64,000 bases of DNA from Escherichia virus TH58. The notes beneath the pieces were generated by a model. That model did not search any database, was not told the origin of the DNA, and saw only the letters and a list, made by a program, of their open reading frames with translations. Shown piece after piece: positions 8,040-53,295 of this stretch. Location: the sequence record MT446423.1; one strand, given 5' to 3'. The stretch's first letter is position 1; every line of letters begins with the position of its first letter. Made by a program: the position numbers and the translations under genes.

Positions 8040-8050
8040 TAATGTACAAC

Positions 8051-8080
8051 GATAGGAAGATAATAACATGTCTTCCTATC
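8051..8080 (+). other. perfect 10-bp inverted repeat (stem-loop) between genes
   Basis: GATAGGAAGA ..10 nt.. TCTTCCTATC immediately upstream of the RBS of gene 8103; weak T tract. Confidence 0.4.
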
Positions 8081-8102
8081 GTCTTAAAATGAGGAAAATA
8101 TC

Positions 8103-8342
8103 ATGACCCAAGAATTAGATTTTATCAAATTCAAAAAACACCTCGACGTTAAAATTGGGGATTCAAATGTTAGGATTGAGTATGACATTTTAACAGATGC
8201 TATTACTGTTAGTTGTGATGGAAATAGTTTCAGCTTCGATACAACCGAAAACAAATACCCAATCTATAAAGGCATCTTTGATATGGGTGTTGATATTACT
8301 CCACGTGATACAAATTACTTACTTTTCATGCTTAAAAAATAG
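8103..8342 (+). CDS. hypothetical protein (79 aa)
   Basis: Track ORF with AGGAAAATATC ATG. Confidence 0.45.
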   Translation: MTQELDFIKFKKHLDVKIGDSNVRIEYDILTDAITVSCDGNSFSFDTTENKYPIYKGIFDMGVDITPRDTNYLLFMLKK

Positions 8343-8372
8343 TATAACAAACTCTTGAGAGCAGAGTATAAT
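8343..8372 (+). promoter_or_regulatory. early-type promoter (weak -35, -10 TATAAT)
   Basis: aaactcttgagagcagag TATAAT; near-identical copy at 52575-52604. Confidence 0.4.
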
Positions 8373-8411
8373 TCTCTCTCATTGGATAATAAAATAACCG
8401 AGGAAAATAAT

Positions 8412-8744
8412 ATGTCTACTAAAATCAAAAACGTAGTTAATTCTTTCGCTTTCGATAAAGTTGTTGCTCTTCTGGAATCCGGCAATATTGTTACTCCTCA
8501 AGTTCTTGACGCGTGGGAATTCCGTCTTTATGAAAACATGCAAAAACACGATCAGAAAATTGGACGTAATTCTATTCGTGAAATTCTAGTACAATATATT
8601 CTTTCTGAATTTGACGTTGCTGCATTTGGTGTTGAATCTAAAGCTTATCAGAAACATGAAATCTCTGAAAAGACTATCCGTCGTATGAAAAATCAACGTA
8701 AGAAAAAATTCGTTGACCTGAAAATTGTTAAGGCGGTAAAATGA
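8412..8744 (+). CDS. hypothetical protein (110 aa)
   Basis: Internal ATG (MSTKIKNV) of track ORF 8355-8744 preceded by AGGAAAA. Confidence 0.5.
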   Translation: MSTKIKNVVNSFAFDKVVALLESGNIVTPQVLDAWEFRLYENMQKHDQKIGRNSIREILVQYILSEFDVAAFGVESKAYQKHEISEKTIRRMKNQRKKKFVDLKIVKAVK

Positions 8745-8968: not shown

Positions 8969-9124
8969 AACCATCTCGAATCACTATAACCGAATAAAAG
9001 TTTAGGTGAATTTTAAGTCGTCAACTTTATGAAAGTTACGTATCTTTGATAGTATCTCGTGCTTTAAGATAGGTCTCTAAATATTATGATATAATAGACC
9101 TATGAATTGAGCTAAGAGGTACTT

Positions 9125-10626: not shown

Positions 10627-10650
10627 GCTTTATATTTGGGATGATAAAAT
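10626..10650 (+). promoter_or_regulatory. putative middle (MotA-dependent) promoter upstream of gene 47
   Basis: MotA-box TGCTTTA, 12-nt spacer, -10 TAAAAT. Confidence 0.45.
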
Positions 10651-29872: not shown

Positions 29873-29901
29873 AGACTTACACCAACCAAGAGGAGAACAA
29901 A

Positions 29902-30219
29902 ATGAAAACCATCGATTGTAAAGCAGAATTTAAGATTTTTTATCACGGTTCAAGTAGTTCAGCTAACATCGAAAACATGCTTTGCCCTCCTGAAGAAACA
30001 GGAGTTCTGTCTGAAACTGGACGTAAGAAAAACTTGGATCGTGTATTCTTTACTGAAGATATCGGTTTAGCAAAGATTTATGCAGGACGAGCAGCACGCT
30101 CTTATGGAGGTGAACCACGTCTCTATCGAGTAATTTCTCCGGTGGACGTAGTTCAAATGAATAATACTAAAGGTGCTACAGTTTATCACGCTGAATGGGC
30201 ATTTTGCGAGGAAATATGA
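29902..30219 (+). CDS. hypothetical protein (105 aa)
   Basis: Track ORF with AGAGGAGAA SD. Confidence 0.5.
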   Translation: MKTIDCKAEFKIFYHGSSSSANIENMLCPPEETGVLSETGRKKNLDRVFFTEDIGLAKIYAGRAARSYGGEPRLYRVISPVDVVQMNNTKGATVYHAEWAFCEEI

Positions 30220-31111: not shown

Positions 31112-31360
31112 ATGGAATTATTCGTAGCTAGTTCAGTAGCAGTTTTAATCGCAGGTATTGGTTCAATCATCATTTACATGTTGCCTTGGGTAATCGCACT
31201 TATTCGTGGCACAAAAAGCACAACAGCAATCTTCTTTGTATCTTTACTCTTTAACTGGACGATGATTGGTTGGATTGGAACTTTAATTTGGTCTATCGTT
31301 GCCGAAAAGAAATCTGCTCAGCAGCCTCAACAAGTAATTATTATTCGCGAAAAAGAATAA
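31112..31360 (+). CDS. imm: superinfection-immunity (Imm-family) membrane protein (82 aa)
   Basis: Two TM segments with IALIRGTKSTTAIFFVSLLFNWTMIGWIGTLIW, resembling the Imm superinfection-immunity family; not at the T4 imm locus. Confidence 0.55.
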   Translation: MELFVASSVAVLIAGIGSIIIYMLPWVIALIRGTKSTTAIFFVSLLFNWTMIGWIGTLIWSIVAEKKSAQQPQQVIIIREKE

Positions 31361-31363
31361 ACT

Positions 31364-31393
31364 TGTTTACATTATAGATGGACTATGGTATAG
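31364..31393 (+). promoter_or_regulatory. early promoter (-35 GTTTAC, -10 TATAGT)
   Basis: GTTTAC, about 18-nt spacer, TATAGT then AGTCCTATC. Confidence 0.5.
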
Positions 31394-31423
31394 TAGTCCT
31401 ATCAAATCAACTAAGGAGTTAAA

Positions 31424-37129: not shown

Positions 37130-37711
37130 ATGACATGTCAATCTGAACTTCAAGAACGTGAATACCTAACAAATCTGATTGATAGCAAATTCACCCGCCA
37201 AGAACAAAACATTCTCTGGGCTTGCACTGATTCTAAGGAAGACCCGGATTTCCACTATGAATTAGACCATCTTGTTCGTAAGCATATGACTTCTACAGTA
37301 CCAGTAGAACTCTACCGTGGTGTAACTCCAGAAGAAGTAGAACGTCTTTCCCTTCTTTCTGTTGGATGTCATTGGTCTCCTGGACGAGTAACATCGTTCA
37401 CAACTGATTTCAGTACAGCTCGTCAATTCTCCGGGAGTTGGGAGTATCAGACGTACACTATTCTTAGTCTCAGGAATGCTCCATTCATTTTTGATTACTA
37501 CCAAAACATGATTAACATTGTACTTGCCGGAAAGAACCCTAAGCATGTTATGGAAGAAAAACGTGTTGACGTCCTAGATATGATTGAATCTGAACAAGAG
37601 TACATGGTCTCAGGTATCTCTAGATTTGAGATTGTGGAAATTGAAGACTTAGAATATGACCCTTTATCTCGATTATACAAAATCATTCATTTAAAAATGT
37701 TGAATTTTTAG
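37130..37711 (+). CDS. modB: ADP-ribosyltransferase, ModA/ModB family (193 aa)
   Basis: Arg (ELYRGV), Ser-rich segment (TSFTT) and EQE (ExE) catalytic motif; paralog of next gene; symbol assigned only from T4 gene order. Confidence 0.55.
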   Translation: MTCQSELQEREYLTNLIDSKFTRQEQNILWACTDSKEDPDFHYELDHLVRKHMTSTVPVELYRGVTPEEVERLSLLSVGCHWSPGRVTSFTTDFSTARQFSGSWEYQTYTILSLRNAPFIFDYYQNMINIVLAGKNPKHVMEEKRVDVLDMIESEQEYMVSGISRFEIVEIEDLEYDPLSRLYKIIHLKMLNF

Positions 37712-37740
37712 TGTACAAACTCTTCCGACGATGATACTAT
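37711..37740 (+). promoter_or_regulatory. early promoter (-35 GTGTAC, -10 TACTAT)
   Basis: GTGTAC, 18-nt spacer, TACTAT. Confidence 0.4.
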
Positions 37741-37768
37741 ACTTTTATCAACCACAGGAGAAACCTAA

Positions 37769-41593: not shown

Positions 41594-41623
41594 GTTTACA
41601 ACCAAGGATGGTTGGAGTATAAT
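41594..41623 (+). promoter_or_regulatory. early promoter (-35 GTTTAC, -10 TATAAT)
   Basis: GTTTAC-aaccaaggatggttggag-TATAAT; near-duplicate of promoter at 42151. Confidence 0.55.
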
Positions 41624-41653
41624 CTTTCTATCTTAACCAAACAGGAAAACATT

Positions 41654-42148
41654 ATGAACATCAATACTACGGCTACTTACATCCTGAAAGACGAAAAACA
41701 AATCAACTGGTACGGTGCTTCAGTGCGAGCTTATGAAAAGTTTTGTGAAATTTTAGGTGCCACTCAAGGTAATAGTTTCACTATTGTTAACTTCATCAAA
41801 CAAGCTGAAGGTCCTTGGTTATTCTTAGAAATTAAAAATTCATATGGTACAATTTCTACTACCGCCCTTCCAAGCACCGACTTTGAACTGTTGATTGAAG
41901 AAGCACCTGTTAAAGATGGTCTCCACTTTGATATGGATATCGCTTGTATGTACGGTACTCTGATTAAGCCTATTGAGCCTACTGATTTGTTGTGTAAAGC
42001 TGTTTCGATTCGTCGTCCGTTTGCAGGTCCAGTGAGTGGATGGGTAACTGATCAGTGGATTGAAGACGGCGTTGAACTTCTGAACGTTGTTCATGCAGGT
42101 GATTTTAGTGTAGTTCCACGTAGTGCTGTGGTTAATATCCTTAATTAA
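41654..42148 (+). CDS. hypothetical protein, tandem paralog 1 of 3 (164 aa)
   Basis: Internal ATG of track ORF 41612-42148; C-terminal domain ..GWVTDQWIEDGVELLNVVHAGDFSVVP shared with next two genes. Confidence 0.5.
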   Translation: MNINTTATYILKDEKQINWYGASVRAYEKFCEILGATQGNSFTIVNFIKQAEGPWLFLEIKNSYGTISTTALPSTDFELLIEEAPVKDGLHFDMDIACMYGTLIKPIEPTDLLCKAVSIRRPFAGPVSGWVTDQWIEDGVELLNVVHAGDFSVVPRSAVVNILN

Positions 42149-42150
42149 TG

Positions 42151-42180
42151 TTGTACATCCAAGGATGGATGGAGTATAGT
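42151..42180 (+). promoter_or_regulatory. early promoter (-35 TTGTAC, -10 TATAGT)
   Basis: TTGTAC-atccaaggatggatggag-TATAGT. Confidence 0.5.
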
Positions 42181-42210
42181 GAATTCAATTTAAACAAAGA
42201 GAGAGAAATT

Positions 42211-42708
42211 ATGATTACTATTGGTGAAATCCTTCGTGTATCTCCTGCTTCTCGTTCTAAAGCTGCAGGTCGTCTGGTTGAAGTAGCAGGGCTTCGTACT
42301 AACGGCATGGGACGTGTTAAAGAAGTTAAAGTTCGAATCATGCCCAGTTTTGGCGGACAAGAGGCCCAGTATGCTTACGTAAGTCCTAAATTCCTGGAAA
42401 AACATATACGAGTCCAATTTGCTTCAAGCGAAGAAGTTGCACCTGCACACTTTGCTTCAAACGATATCGTTGAGCCTACTACACAGTTCAAATGGGCCCT
42501 TTGCAAAGGCGTTGAATTTATAACCGATAAAGAATTTGATTACATCGACGAATACGGTTATCCAAGCAAAACTGATATTATGTGCGGCTTCATTAGTGAC
42601 CAATGGGTTGAAGATGGTAAAAAGTTATACAATATTGTATTTTTAGGTGACTTCCGAGTTGTTGAAGAATCTGAAATCACTCGCTATGTTTCTCCTCGTA
42701 AAGCTTAA
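42211..42708 (+). CDS. hypothetical protein, tandem paralog 2 of 3 (165 aa)
   Basis: Internal ATG of track ORF 42148-42708; N-terminal SPASRSKAAGRLVEV and C-terminal GFISDQWVEDGKKLYNIVFLGDFRVV shared with paralog 3. Confidence 0.5.
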   Translation: MITIGEILRVSPASRSKAAGRLVEVAGLRTNGMGRVKEVKVRIMPSFGGQEAQYAYVSPKFLEKHIRVQFASSEEVAPAHFASNDIVEPTTQFKWALCKGVEFITDKEFDYIDEYGYPSKTDIMCGFISDQWVEDGKKLYNIVFLGDFRVVEESEITRYVSPRKA

Positions 42709-44468: not shown

Positions 44469-44487
44469 AGATTTCGGATGATAGAAT
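44463..44487 (+). promoter_or_regulatory. putative middle promoter for gene 39
   Basis: MotA-box TGCTTTA overlapping terminator T tract, 12-nt spacer, -10 TAGAAT. Confidence 0.4.
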
Positions 44488-51312: not shown

Positions 51313-51789
51313 ATGAAGGTGAAGATTGCTGACACTGCTCGGTATTCCCTGAGCCAAAATCCTGACCAAAACAAAGAAGATGTAGTTCGACGTTGTAAGG
51401 TTGCGGTCTTTGCAGAGTATGTAGTAGCAAATTGGCTAGACGGATATGTTAATAAAGGTATTGAAGATGTAGAAGACCCGTACACGTATGCATGGGACGT
51501 GTTAGCCCATCCCAAATATTGTGGAATTCGTGTAGAAGTCAAGACACACCAGATAGATTCTAAATGGATTTCTGTTACCACAGGATACAGTGGTGATTAT
51601 CCGGGTGGCAACGGAATCAATATAGGGCCCTTCTTGAACCATCGAGTCGCAGATTGCATTATTATATTAGATGTCAAAGAAACCTCACCTGACGTCTTCT
51701 CTTATTCTATAAAGTTCGTGGGAGACCATGAAGACCTAAAGAAAATCGTCCGCAAGAGCAACTACAATGGGTGGTATCTTCAACTTTAA
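51313..51789 (+). CDS. hypothetical protein (158 aa), at the T4 denB position
   Basis: First non-overlapping ATG of track ORF 51169-51789; start uncertain; no endonuclease motif recognised. Confidence 0.4.
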   Translation: MKVKIADTARYSLSQNPDQNKEDVVRRCKVAVFAEYVVANWLDGYVNKGIEDVEDPYTYAWDVLAHPKYCGIRVEVKTHQIDSKWISVTTGYSGDYPGGNGINIGPFLNHRVADCIIILDVKETSPDVFSYSIKFVGDHEDLKKIVRKSNYNGWYLQL

Positions 51790-51801
51790 TTTCATAAAAG
51801 T

Positions 51802-51831
51802 GTTTACAACTAAGTAGGACTATGATATAGT
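51802..51831 (+). promoter_or_regulatory. early promoter (-35 GTTTAC, -10 TATAGT)
   Basis: GTTTAC, 18-nt spacer, TATAGT then AGTCCTATC. Confidence 0.55.
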
Positions 51832-51857
51832 AGTCCTATCTAAAAGAGGATAACATC

Positions 51858-52121
51858 ATGAAATTTAAATTTTTCTACGCAAAACATAAAGTAACAGGCG
51901 AATTTGTTTCAATGTACAACACTGCAGATGACGAAGGGATGATTTATACCCATTTGGGACTATCTCATTGGGACTCAGACGTGCCTTATATGTCATCTGA
52001 AGCCGAAATAACTCGTCTGGTTAATGGACATATGAACGACCATTTTAGTGTTATTCTTTCTAAAGACCTTAAAGAGGTTATCAACAAAGGATATATGGAA
52101 CTCGCGGAAGTTGAGATATGA
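51858..52121 (+). CDS. hypothetical protein (87 aa)
   Basis: Track ORF with AGAGGA SD. Confidence 0.5.
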   Translation: MKFKFFYAKHKVTGEFVSMYNTADDEGMIYTHLGLSHWDSDVPYMSSEAEITRLVNGHMNDHFSVILSKDLKEVINKGYMELAEVEI

Positions 52122-52204
52122 GCTCTAAAATGTGGATCGGAATATGGTTGCTTAGTATCCCTATGATTTGTATAATATTTTCAATTGCATTGAGGTACTT
52201 ATGA
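52118..52204 (+). CDS. small hydrophobic peptide (28 aa)
   Basis: ORF read by eye; ATGA overlap with upstream stop; single TM-like segment. Confidence 0.25.
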   Translation: MSSKMWIGIWLLSIPMICIIFSIALRYL

Positions 52205-52311
52205 AAAATGCACTTCTTATTGTACTAAGAACAATTTGCGATACAGGTTTTTACATCGCATGTTCGTTCACCGGAACATGGTTGGCTTTAACATATTTTA
52301 ATGTAATTTAA
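52201..52311 (+). CDS. small hydrophobic peptide (36 aa)
   Basis: ORF read by eye; GAGG SD 6 nt upstream of ATG. Confidence 0.3.
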   Translation: MKNALLIVLRTICDTGFYIACSFTGTWLALTYFNVI

Positions 52312-52313
52312 TT

Positions 52314-52343
52314 GTTTACATCAAGGTAGGATTATGGTATAGT
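52314..52343 (+). promoter_or_regulatory. early promoter (-35 GTTTAC, -10 TATAGT)
   Basis: GTTTAC, 18-nt spacer, TATAGT then AGTCCTAC. Confidence 0.55.
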
Positions 52344-52371
52344 AGTCCTACTGAAACATGAGGAACACAAA

Positions 52372-52572
52372 ATGGCTAAGCTTTTTAAAGATGTTGAAAT
52401 TGGTGAAAAATTTGTTCTGAATAATGGTCAGCAGCTTATTCGTGTAGCTTCTATCGCCGGACAAACTCATAACTGTATCGCCCCAACGTGTTGGACTCGA
52501 TTCTTTATTGAAGATGATACTGAATGTTTAACTGTTGAAGAGCTTTTTGAACGTTCTGATATGGCCGAATAA
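52372..52572 (+). CDS. hypothetical protein (66 aa)
   Basis: Track ORF with GAGGAA SD. Confidence 0.45.
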   Translation: MAKLFKDVEIGEKFVLNNGQQLIRVASIAGQTHNCIAPTCWTRFFIEDDTECLTVEELFERSDMAE

Positions 52573-52574
52573 AA

Positions 52575-52604
52575 TTGTACAAACTCTTGAGAGCAGAGTA
52601 TAAT
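52575..52604 (+). promoter_or_regulatory. early promoter (-35 TTGTAC, -10 TATAAT) with -10 inside a short hairpin
   Basis: TTGTAC-aaactcttgagagcagag-TATAAT; TGAGAGCA..TGCTCTCA inverted repeat spans the -10; near-identical copy at 8343. Confidence 0.5.
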
Positions 52605-52648
52605 GCTCTCATGGATTACAAAAACATTAATCAATTGAGGAAATTAGC

Positions 52649-53095
52649 ATGTCCAAATATTTAACTCGTAAAGACCTTCTGGCAGTTGGCGGTGAAGTTG
52701 TTGCAGTAGTTCGTAATGGCGAATACGGTTCTGAAGTTTCTAAAGAGTTTCGTTCTCGTGAAGGTTTTTACTTCTTTGTTAAAGGTTCATCTGATTGGCG
52801 TCAAGTAGCAGCACGATTCTTTGTAGGACGTCAACGTTCTAAACAAGGGTTGGATGCAATTCTTTCTCACATTCGTCAAGGCCGTTCGCAACTAGCCCGT
52901 ACCATGGGCACTAACAATATTGAATATGATGTAATCTTTGTTGCAGCTAAGAACATGAAACCACTGACTACTGGTTATGGTAAAGGACAATTGGCTCTAG
53001 CATTCACTCGCAATCATACATCAGAATATCAAACACTCACTGAAATGAACCGTCTTCTGGCAGATAATTTCAAATTCATTCTGCAGAGTTACTAA
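52649..53095 (+). CDS. ndd: nucleoid disruption protein Ndd
   Basis: 148 aa; ..[61 protein letters not shown] matches T4 Ndd as remembered. Confidence 0.85.
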
Positions 53096-53102
53096 TTTAT
53101 AC

Positions 53103-53136
53103 GGGCCTATTAAGTTGGCCCTTTAATTTATTTTTT
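53103..53136 (+). terminator. rho-independent terminator
   Basis: GGGCC-9 nt loop-GGCCC followed by TTTAATTTATTTTTT. Confidence 0.6.
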
Positions 53137-53148
53137 GAGGTAATTAAA

Positions 53149-53295
53149 ATGGTAACATGGATTATTGCATTGCTGTGTTGGACGTTTTTATTCGTTAACA
53201 CTTTAGTTACAGGCGAAACAACAGTATTTCAACAGGCGGTGTCACAAGGTACTTTAGCGGTCTTAGCTCTTTTTAACGTATTAAAAGGCGAGTAA
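53149..53295 (+). CDS. small membrane protein (48 aa), possible ac-like
   Basis: ORF read by eye between ndd and gene 52; hydrophobic; T4 carries ac and stp here. Confidence 0.35.
   Translation: MVTWIIALLCWTFLFVNTLVTGETTVFQQAVSQGTLAVLALFNVLKGE

Follow-up and report, generated by a model that had tools for sequence, protein, structure and literature searches.

A repeated, predicted early promoter with a stem-loop over its -10 element in Escherichia virus TH58: two probable copies of a PeSL-type cassette

Introduction

The genome of Escherichia virus TH58 (MT446423.1) carries the same promoter-like sequence at two distant loci, and at one of them the -10 element is embedded in an inverted repeat. 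Are these ordinary early promoters that happen to be alike, or copies of a recurring element, and what might the inverted repeat be for? We addressed these questions in a stretch of 64,000 nucleotides of this genome, referred to here as the window. It is ~98% identical to the Mosigvirus genomes ST0, PNJ-6, APCEc01 and JS09, which are RB69-like relatives of T4.

Elements that combine a promoter and a stem-loop are known in T4-like phages, where 'promoter-early stem-loop' (PeSL) cassettes were described by Arbiol et al. 2010 (PMC2839356) and Comeau et al. 2014 (PMC4122927). In PeSLs the stem-loop is found between the -35 and -10 boxes or over the -10, and the SD sequence and the ATG lie at the 3′ end. 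The T-even consensus is TTTACW-N17-TAYWAT, with stems of the form 'AGNA-loop-TCNT' for T4/PST. PeSLs recur in hyperplastic regions and have been implicated in indels and in mini-circles, and the ndd region is among the published examples (PMC2839356, PMC4122927).

Results

Two promoter-like copies in two intergenic spacers

The 25-mer CAAACTCTTGAGAGCAGAGTATAAT occurs exactly twice in the window, at 8348-8372 and 52580-52604, both times on the + strand, and 100 dinucleotide-preserving shuffles yielded 0 matches even with three mismatches allowed. The original prediction of near-identical promoter copies at two loci therefore stands, with an exact repeat and with the first coordinate corrected by one base, from 8349 to 8348. 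A longer form of 32 nt with one mismatch covers 8347-8378 and 52579-52610 (family D18), and beyond it the likeness of the two sites runs on, with a small indel, through a common GGAT-A-rich box.

The second copy (site 2) belongs to a cassette at 52573-52648 on the + strand, which makes up the entire spacer between the ndd.1 homolog (52372-52572) and ndd (52649-53095) and matches the family profile in nhmmer with E = 6e-15. The gene order on the + strand is rIIB, denB, an ORF, ndd.1, site 2, ndd, ac and 52; a relocation of ndd.1 relative to ndd between T4 and RB69 was considered and rejected, as the T4 annotation has the same order. By promoter scan the -10 hexamer TATAAT is at 52599-52604 and the -35 hexamer TGTACA, of the T4-early type (consensus TTTACA), at 52576-52581 (10/12 matches, 17-bp spacer), and the standard 7-nt distance places the predicted +1 at ~52611. 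As had been claimed, an inverted repeat flanks the -10. Its 5′ arm TGAGAGCA (52588-52595), loop GAGTATAA (52596-52603) and 3′ arm TGCTCTCA (52604-52611) form a predicted hairpin at 52588-52611, with the -10 lying within the loop and the first base of the 3′ arm, and the site folds at -12.6 kcal/mol (z = -3.7 vs shuffles). Past the hairpin are the box GGATTACAAAA (52613-52623), which is RegB/S1-like by sequence, and the ndd SD GAGG (52637-52640) and ATG (52649-52651).

The first copy (site 1) is located in a cluster of small ORFs 5′ of the late sigma gene 55. Its cassette (8343-8411, + strand; nhmmer E = 1.7e-9) is the spacer between the homolog of RB69ORF075c (8103-8342) and that of gene 55.2 (ATG 8412, stop 8744), which is annotated in JS09 as 'gp55.2'. 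The promoter scan placed the -10 hexamer TATAAT at 8367-8372. The -35 elements of the two sites differ, in agreement with what was first noted: at the same 17-bp spacing site 1 has ATAACA (8344-8349), which fits only 4/6 consensus positions and is weakened by a 1-nt insertion compared with TGTACA, TATACA or TTTACA of its relatives. The hairpin at 8356-8381, TGAGAG(C)AGAGT / ATTCTCTCTCA, is imperfect, with a bulged C and, in the 3′ arm, a G>T change plus a 2-nt TC insertion relative to other members (-10.6 kcal/mol, z = -3.15). It is followed by the box GGATAATAAAA (8384-8394), a full fit to the RegB-type consensus with U at position 4, and by the SD GAGG (8400-8403) and ATG (8412-8414) of the 55.2 homolog. 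Both sites thus end in GAGG-N8-ATG (52637-52651 and 8400-8414).

Candidate early promoters in the window

An AT-rich tract precedes the -35 at both sites (AATAAAAT at site 2, TTAAAAAATAG at site 1), and both resemble sigma-70 type T4 early promoters, as was originally suggested: -35/N17/TATAAT, intergenic, on the early-gene strand, with an SD and ATG 38-40 nt downstream. Readings as middle or late promoters were ruled out on sequence. The MotA box of T4 middle promoters has the consensus (a/t)(a/t)(a/t)TGCTTtA, centred at -30 (PMC1524935); from -35 to -25 the sites have TGTACAAACTC or ATAACAAACTC, and TGCTT is absent from both. The T4 late promoter TATAAATA is absent at the -10, which reads TATAATGC or TATAATTC, and the downstream boxes TACAAAAA and AATAAAAT do not match it either. 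A scan of 51500-53200 against 4227 Rfam covariance models gave no match at E <= 1.

RB69 carries an identical ndd copy inside Pe:165022 (164972-165022, HMM score 18.2), predicted as an early promoter by Nolan et al. 2006 (PMC1524935), and the record annotation of the T4/fPS-90 homolog reads 'predicted early promoter'. The RB69 element has the sequence of site 2 and agrees with the consensus of a GTTTAC-type -35 and a TATAAT -10, with the C-rich -3 to -1 positions noted for RB69. The promoter description, however, ignores the hairpin, and with its TGTACA -35 and no TGn this is a lower-scoring Pe (18.2 vs 38-40 for its neighbours).

The window contains 23 candidate early promoters of the GTTTACA ... 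TATAAT-like kind, several of which have an inverted repeat between the -35 and -10 or over the -10. Seven of the 23 fold with z < -2, compared with 4/60 random segments (Mann-Whitney p = 0.002), and three PeSL-like promoters lie in the 800 bp 5′ of ndd. A second cassette family, with a strong GTTTACA -35 and TGnTATAGT, is found at 31348-31401, 51785-51838 and 52297-52350; its stem TAGGACTA/TAGTCCTA (or the shifted GTAGGA/TCCTAC) spans the -10. The two copies less than 800 bp 5′ of site 2 are Pe:165795 and Pe:165283 of RB69 (scores 40.3 and 37.9). In the paralogous cassettes 41595-41657 and 42152-42214, the latter preceding the motB homolog, the stem sits between the -35 and -10, and the stems CAACCA-agga-TGGTTG and CATCCA-agga-TGGATG, respectively, are one compensatory A>T / T>A pair apart. 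A promoter-like TTTAAG...TATAAT, enclosed by the 8-bp stem ATAGGTCT/AGACCTAT, is present 5′ of gene 55, the late sigma factor gene (9063-9105), and is unchanged in all four aligned mosigviruses.

The hairpin precedes the predicted transcription start

One element of the original prediction failed, namely that the 5′ end of the transcript could fold. At site 2 the 5′ arm (52588-52595) comes before the -10, and the last base of the 3′ arm coincides with the predicted +1 (~52611), which leaves RNA made from this promoter with at most one base of the hairpin. That the hairpin stabilises or regulates the RNA of its own promoter, at the 5′ end of that RNA, is highly improbable. The inverted repeat is present, but nothing further speaks for this reading: its 5′ arm occupies -24 to -17 relative to the predicted start and would go untranscribed from that promoter, and between +1 and the ATG the RNA folds no better than its shuffles do (z = 0.33 and 0.00). 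Since the 5′ arm precedes the start site, hairpin formation is restricted to single-stranded DNA and to RNA that reads through from upstream promoters. Upstream promoters able to supply read-through at site 2 include the two TAGGACTA-type cassettes (51803 and 52315).

The cassette family in T4-like phages

BLAST searches with 60-mers located the element at 3-4 places per mosigvirus genome. T4 and other tequatroviruses gave one ~80% match each, which in T4 corresponds to the promoter region of motB (AGTTTACAAACTCTTGGGACCAGAGTATAATGGTCCCGTGGAGTATAAAA). Searched with a profile, the complete ST0 genome gave four copies, 5′ of ndd, 55.2, gp241 and gp156. The members in the window are the ndd and 55.2 copies, plus a half-copy at 37710 that has only the -35 and AAACTCTT in common with them. 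This half-copy (37710-37760) precedes an ADP-ribosylase (modA/modB-like) gene; its AGTGTACAAACTCTT agrees with the family at every base of the -35 and at spacer bases 1-8, then gives way to a different spacer and the -10 TACTAT, and it may be a chimeric cassette. The motB gene of mosigviruses is preceded by a different cassette, with the stem CATCCA/TGGATG between the boxes.

We scanned IMG/VR with the pattern AAACTCTT-N7-GAGTATAAT, which leaves the 5′ arm free and does not extend to the 3′ arm, and obtained 31 unique contexts. The flanks and loop are fixed by this pattern, and their conservation is therefore partly by construction, while the 3′ arm and the box are unconstrained. Three distant contexts that fit the pattern and lack a clear stem (L016, L020 and L028 among them) were excluded from the family. 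For orthologs of site 1, an IMG/VR scan on the SD region gave only two loci, and BLAST against phage records was more useful. Genes of seven unrelated PHROG families, in at least four T4-like lineages, lie downstream of family members: 55.2 (phrog_1475), MotB (phrog_1671), Ndd (phrog_1102), phrog_4482, phrog_1203, phrog_10053 and phrog_2364.

The stem arms co-vary

Across phages the promoter boxes are fixed while the stem arms co-vary. The paired arm variants in IMG/VR are GAGAGCA/TGCTCTC, GGGAGCA/TGCTCC(C/T), GGGACCA/TGGTCC(C/T), GGGGTCA/TGACCCC, GGGGCCA/TGGTCCC, GGGATCA/TGGTCCT and GAGAGA/TCTCTC. Among 16 unique variants 98.4% of the cells are paired, a value reached by 0/500 shuffles; changes on both sides (compensatory) affect four of the eight stem pairs, and sliding the stem register lowers the pairing to 35-53%. 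RNAalifold independently predicted the same helix. T4 conserves neither the two extra pairs that it proposed nor the outer helix UUGUA/UACAA seen when 52 nt of site 2 are folded.

The wobble cells comprise ~17 G.U/U.G on the + strand vs 1 C.A, a count of sequences and not of independent events, part of which could be due to mutation bias. Nearly all half-changed pairs being G.U on the sense strand, the hairpin appears to be selected, and most likely it acts in read-through RNA from the upstream genes. Judged from the aligned sequences, the wobble pattern is the one expected for a hairpin of the sense strand, in RNA or in sense single-stranded DNA.

A RegB-like box follows the stem

Strong intergenic RegB/S1 sites have the consensus GG*AGRAYARAA; RegB cuts in GGAG/U, and the GGA must be unpaired (PMC3014915). 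The cut leaves a 3′-phosphate end, open to RNase II or RNase R (PMC3014915). Every family member has such a box 1-3 nt past the stem, for example GGAGTATAAAA at T4 motB, GGAGAATAAAC at L006 and GGAGCACAAAA at L013. Both focal boxes agree with the sequence rule for these sites (GGAG/U followed by RAYARAA, intergenic, in an early transcript): site 1 (GGAUAAUAAAA) is a full fit, and site 2 (GGAUUACAAAA) deviates only at position 5, where it has U. In the short hairpin folds the GGA triplet stays unpaired; in longer folds and in RNAalifold it is touched by weak outer pairs. The motif GGAKNAYARAA is modestly enriched in the window, with 5 occurrences vs 1.8 expected (3/100 shuffles reach 5), all on the + strand; the three matches outside our two sites are at 10639-10649, 29892-29902 and 44476-44486, also on this early-gene strand. 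ST0 encodes a regB-like endoribonuclease at the regB position.

The conserved box may be a RegB/S1 cleavage site, although its conservation could come from shared ancestry or from promoter-proximal constraint instead. It resembles known targets in having G or U and then an A-rich tract after a GGA that is unpaired in the short folds, in the purine/pyrimidine pattern, and in its intergenic position in early mRNA. In contrast to most known strong sites, which overlap the SD, the focal box is ~15-25 nt 5′ of it; the mosigvirus copies have GGAU and not GGAG. The spacer between ndd.1 and ndd in T4 (L053 1242-1301, minus strand) has no recognisable promoter and carries GGCCG-N12-CGGCC followed by GGAGTAGAAAATAA, a near-consensus RegB-type box with GGAG. 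This arrangement suggests that the hairpin plus box is an RNA module in its own right.

Probable cassette exchange and copy decay

It had also been suggested that dispersed identical promoters are substrates for recombination. Participation of the cassettes in recombination is backed by the published PeSL work, by an indel in phage AV109 and by the seven downstream gene families. A direct intragenomic crossover is not: an identity of 25-32 bp at sites 44 kb apart is a poor substrate, and crossover between the window copies would cost the phage 44 kb of essential genes; the realistic outcomes are gene conversion or, between co-infecting genomes, exchange. Three of the ST0 copies have an identical core, including the stem sequence, and orthologs in other genera differ. 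Promoter function places no constraint on the stem sequence, and its identity here is consistent with gene conversion or with a recent spread of these copies.

Phage AV109 lacks the entire ORF075c homolog (window 8040-8350 vs L047 930-1000). In its place is a single cassette, made up of the spacer and hairpin of site 1 preceded by a 5′ flank and a -35 that are those of the upstream cassette (window 8043-8048), and the indel ends at the T(G/T)TACAA boxes (-35) of the two flanking cassettes. The junction, as read from the alignment, fits a PeSL-mediated excision or insertion. A 183-nt difference between 55.1 and gene 55 (9043/9044) was examined as another such event and was rejected, as the deletion is not cassette-bounded. 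GADS24 and JS09 have 183 nt there, internal to the RB69ORF072c homolog, that are missing from the window and AV109, and the remnant of this gene contains a stop codon.

The cassette upstream of the RB69ORF075c homolog (8043-8105) has a 12-bp stem, ACGATAGGAAGA/TCTTCCTATCGT (8049-8060 / 8071-8082). Its 10-nt loop TAATAACATG (8061-8070) is the exact reverse complement of the GADS24 loop CATGTTATTA and, but for one base, the reverse complement of CGTGTTATTA in JS09. With the GADS24 orientation, TGTACA-N17-TATTAT makes a promoter on the + strand; the window has its TATTAT on the minus strand, and the canonical promoter of the ORF075c homolog is therefore lost or flipped. Since both orientations are present among database records (~14-23 as in the window, ~91 opposite), this is a natural hairpin-loop inversion polymorphism that carries the -10 box.

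Conservation differs between the two focal copies: for site 2, 143 records are at least 99% identical, while the best database identity of the site 1 66-mer is only 93.9%. With the 1-nt insertion that turned TGTACA/TATACA into ATAACA, and with the G>T and TC changes in the 3′ arm, site 1 in TH58 is a derived, decaying copy with a weakened -35 and a bulged stem, and its promoter may be weak or inactive in this phage.

Discussion

Our analysis places the two sites among the known PeSL / T4 early-promoter class as new Mosigvirus members. By sequence, both show every PeSL feature. Each extends from a stop codon to the next ATG on the early-gene strand. Each has an AT-rich tract and a promoter of the T-even type (TGTACA-N17-TATAAT at site 2, ATAACA-N17-TATAAT at site 1), a stem-loop over the -10 with significant folding (z = -3.7 and -3.15) and covariation, and the SD and start codon of the next gene at the 3′ end. 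Repetition and plasticity are seen in the four ST0 copies, the indel at ORF075c in AV109 and the seven downstream families. Like published PeSLs, the cassettes are intergenic, with 17-bp-spaced sigma-70 boxes, and are repeated in plastic regions beside small ORFs and tied to indels; their purine-rich 5′ and pyrimidine-rich 3′ arms fit the T4/PST 'AGNA-loop-TCNT' type. They differ in that the published cases are from RB49/phi1, PST/T4 and nt-1/KVP40 and not from mosigviruses, and in having neither a G/C-tract stem nor a U-tract. The focal family also keeps its spacer and loop across genera with co-varying arms, which the PeSL papers did not report, and it adds the conserved GGAK-A-rich box and a longer 5′ UTR than the neighbouring PeSLs of the window. 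That both sites are copies of one PeSL-type cassette family of T4-like phages is the best joint explanation of these data, and we consider it probable. As copies of a known kind of T4-like cassette, the sites are a real but essentially ordinary finding, and the RB69 counterpart of the ndd promoter had been predicted before. Modest additions are the covariation across genera, the signature of sense-strand pairing and the RegB-like box.

Other readings of the stem-loop were also considered. The sites could be plain early promoters whose inverted repeat is a functionless accident of ancestry between recently duplicated or converted copies. Within the window alone the hairpin could indeed be inherited baggage, as the two copies are identical over the 5′ arm and loop, and a significant hairpin is missing from about two thirds of the candidate early promoters in the window. 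Across genera, however, the arms change compensatingly while the promoter boxes stay fixed, and the T4 ndd spacer retains a hairpin without any promoter; the covariation largely refutes this explanation, which we regard as unlikely. About equally unlikely is an element acting in DNA, either a cruciform that exposes the -10 as single strand (supercoiling-tuned melting) or a palindromic operator at which a dimeric phage repressor would shut off early transcription. Arms of 8 bp with an 8-bp spacer centred on the -10 have classic operator geometry, and T4 early promoters are switched off within minutes (PMC2988021). A cruciform requires pairing on both strands, so the bias of half-changed pairs toward + strand G.T, which is A.C on the other strand (~17 to 1), counts against it, and an 8-bp stem with an 8-nt loop makes a poor cruciform. 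The operator is disfavoured by arms that differ within the ST0 genome (GAGAGCA vs GGGAGCA) and by the unrelated arms of other PeSLs in the window (TAGGACTA, CAACCA). Promoters linked to DNA hairpins do exist in phage N4 and in the single-strand promoter Frpo of the F plasmid, but there the hairpin itself is the recognised promoter structure, used by a dedicated polymerase or on single-stranded DNA, whereas the focal promoter is of the ordinary sigma-70 kind, used as duplex DNA, and a role in DNA is at odds with the wobble pattern.

Termination or attenuation of upstream transcription, insulating each small early gene, was proposed by the PeSL authors and is a possibility that we hold with some doubt. 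The stem-loop of the RB49 PeSL211/210 cut lacZ read-through about as much as rrnB T1 (PMC2839356), and both the position right after a stop codon and the sense-strand selection fit. As in intrinsic terminators and REP-like 3′ stabiliser hairpins, a stable sense-strand hairpin directly follows the stop codon. Unlike these, the focal element has a short stem, overlaps a promoter and has no U-tract past the stem (AUGGAUUACAAAAAC); a G+C-rich stem with a direct U-tract, as in Rho-independent terminators, is not found at either site, where the tails are ATGGATTA and TTGGATAA. Neither site was flagged in the intrinsic-terminator scan, no TransTerm entry exists at the corresponding RB69 position, and the stem of just 8 bp with 4 G-C pairs is unlike the tested polyG/polyC stems. 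Moreover, downstream genes without promoters in these phages rely on read-through. With no U-tract and no terminator flag, the activity of one G/C-rich RB49 PeSL is not simply transferable to the focal family.

A related possibility, held as tentatively as termination, is a three-layer 'insulator' of ~50 nt, in which the promoter restarts transcription while the hairpin that carries the -10 in read-through RNA forms, together with the GGA(G/U)-A-rich box, a RegB/S1 processing module. A cut 3′ of the hairpin would leave the upstream cistron stem-capped and the downstream cistron open to 5′-end-dependent decay, and after the first minutes the expression of ndd, 55.2 or motB would rest solely on the promoter within the cassette. 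In the T4 ndd spacer, where hairpin and GGAG box occur and a promoter does not, the RNA module would then be present minus its DNA layer. The literature that we could search contained no mapped transcription start, 3′ end or cleavage site for any family member, and nothing usable on a start site or 3′ end at T4 motB or ndd.

Within the PeSL-type reading that we prefer, several signals would be overlaid in one cassette of ~75 nt that fills the intergenic spacer. The analysis shows the repeat, the promoter consensus and context, selection for sense-strand pairing, multi-copy spread before unrelated genes and an indel ending at -35 boxes; we infer promoter activity in vivo, the role of the hairpin in RNA and cleavage by RegB. 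The sigma-70 early promoter (AT-rich tract, T[G/T]TACA, 17 bp, TATAAT) would fire on the injected genome, driving ndd from site 2 and 55.2 from site 1. The 8-bp hairpin, whose arms lie in the promoter spacer and the discriminator with the -10 in the loop, would in read-through RNA most likely mark or shield the 3′ limit of the upstream message, either attenuating transcription or blocking 3′ exonucleases. A possible RegB/S1 cut in the GGA(G/U)-A-rich box 1-3 nt past the hairpin would part the fates of the upstream and downstream cistrons. As a working model, then, the hairpin may protect or define the 3′ end of the upstream message beside a RegB cut. Being dispersed repeats, the cassettes may in addition offer short stretches of homology at which gene conversion and modular exchange take place.

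For annotation, the dispersed 25-mer is to be read as one of a few cassette families that punctuate T4-like early regions, and not as a mobile element or an artefact of assembly. The original PeSL papers inferred selection from presence only, and the cross-genus covariation adds direct evolutionary evidence that sense-strand pairing of a PeSL stem-loop is selected. The RegB-like box offers a concrete and cheap hypothesis for the role of a stem-loop without a U-tract. For phage engineering the cassettes are compact, portable drivers of early genes, and they bear on how host-takeover genes such as ndd, 55.2 and motB get shuffled among therapeutic coliphages.
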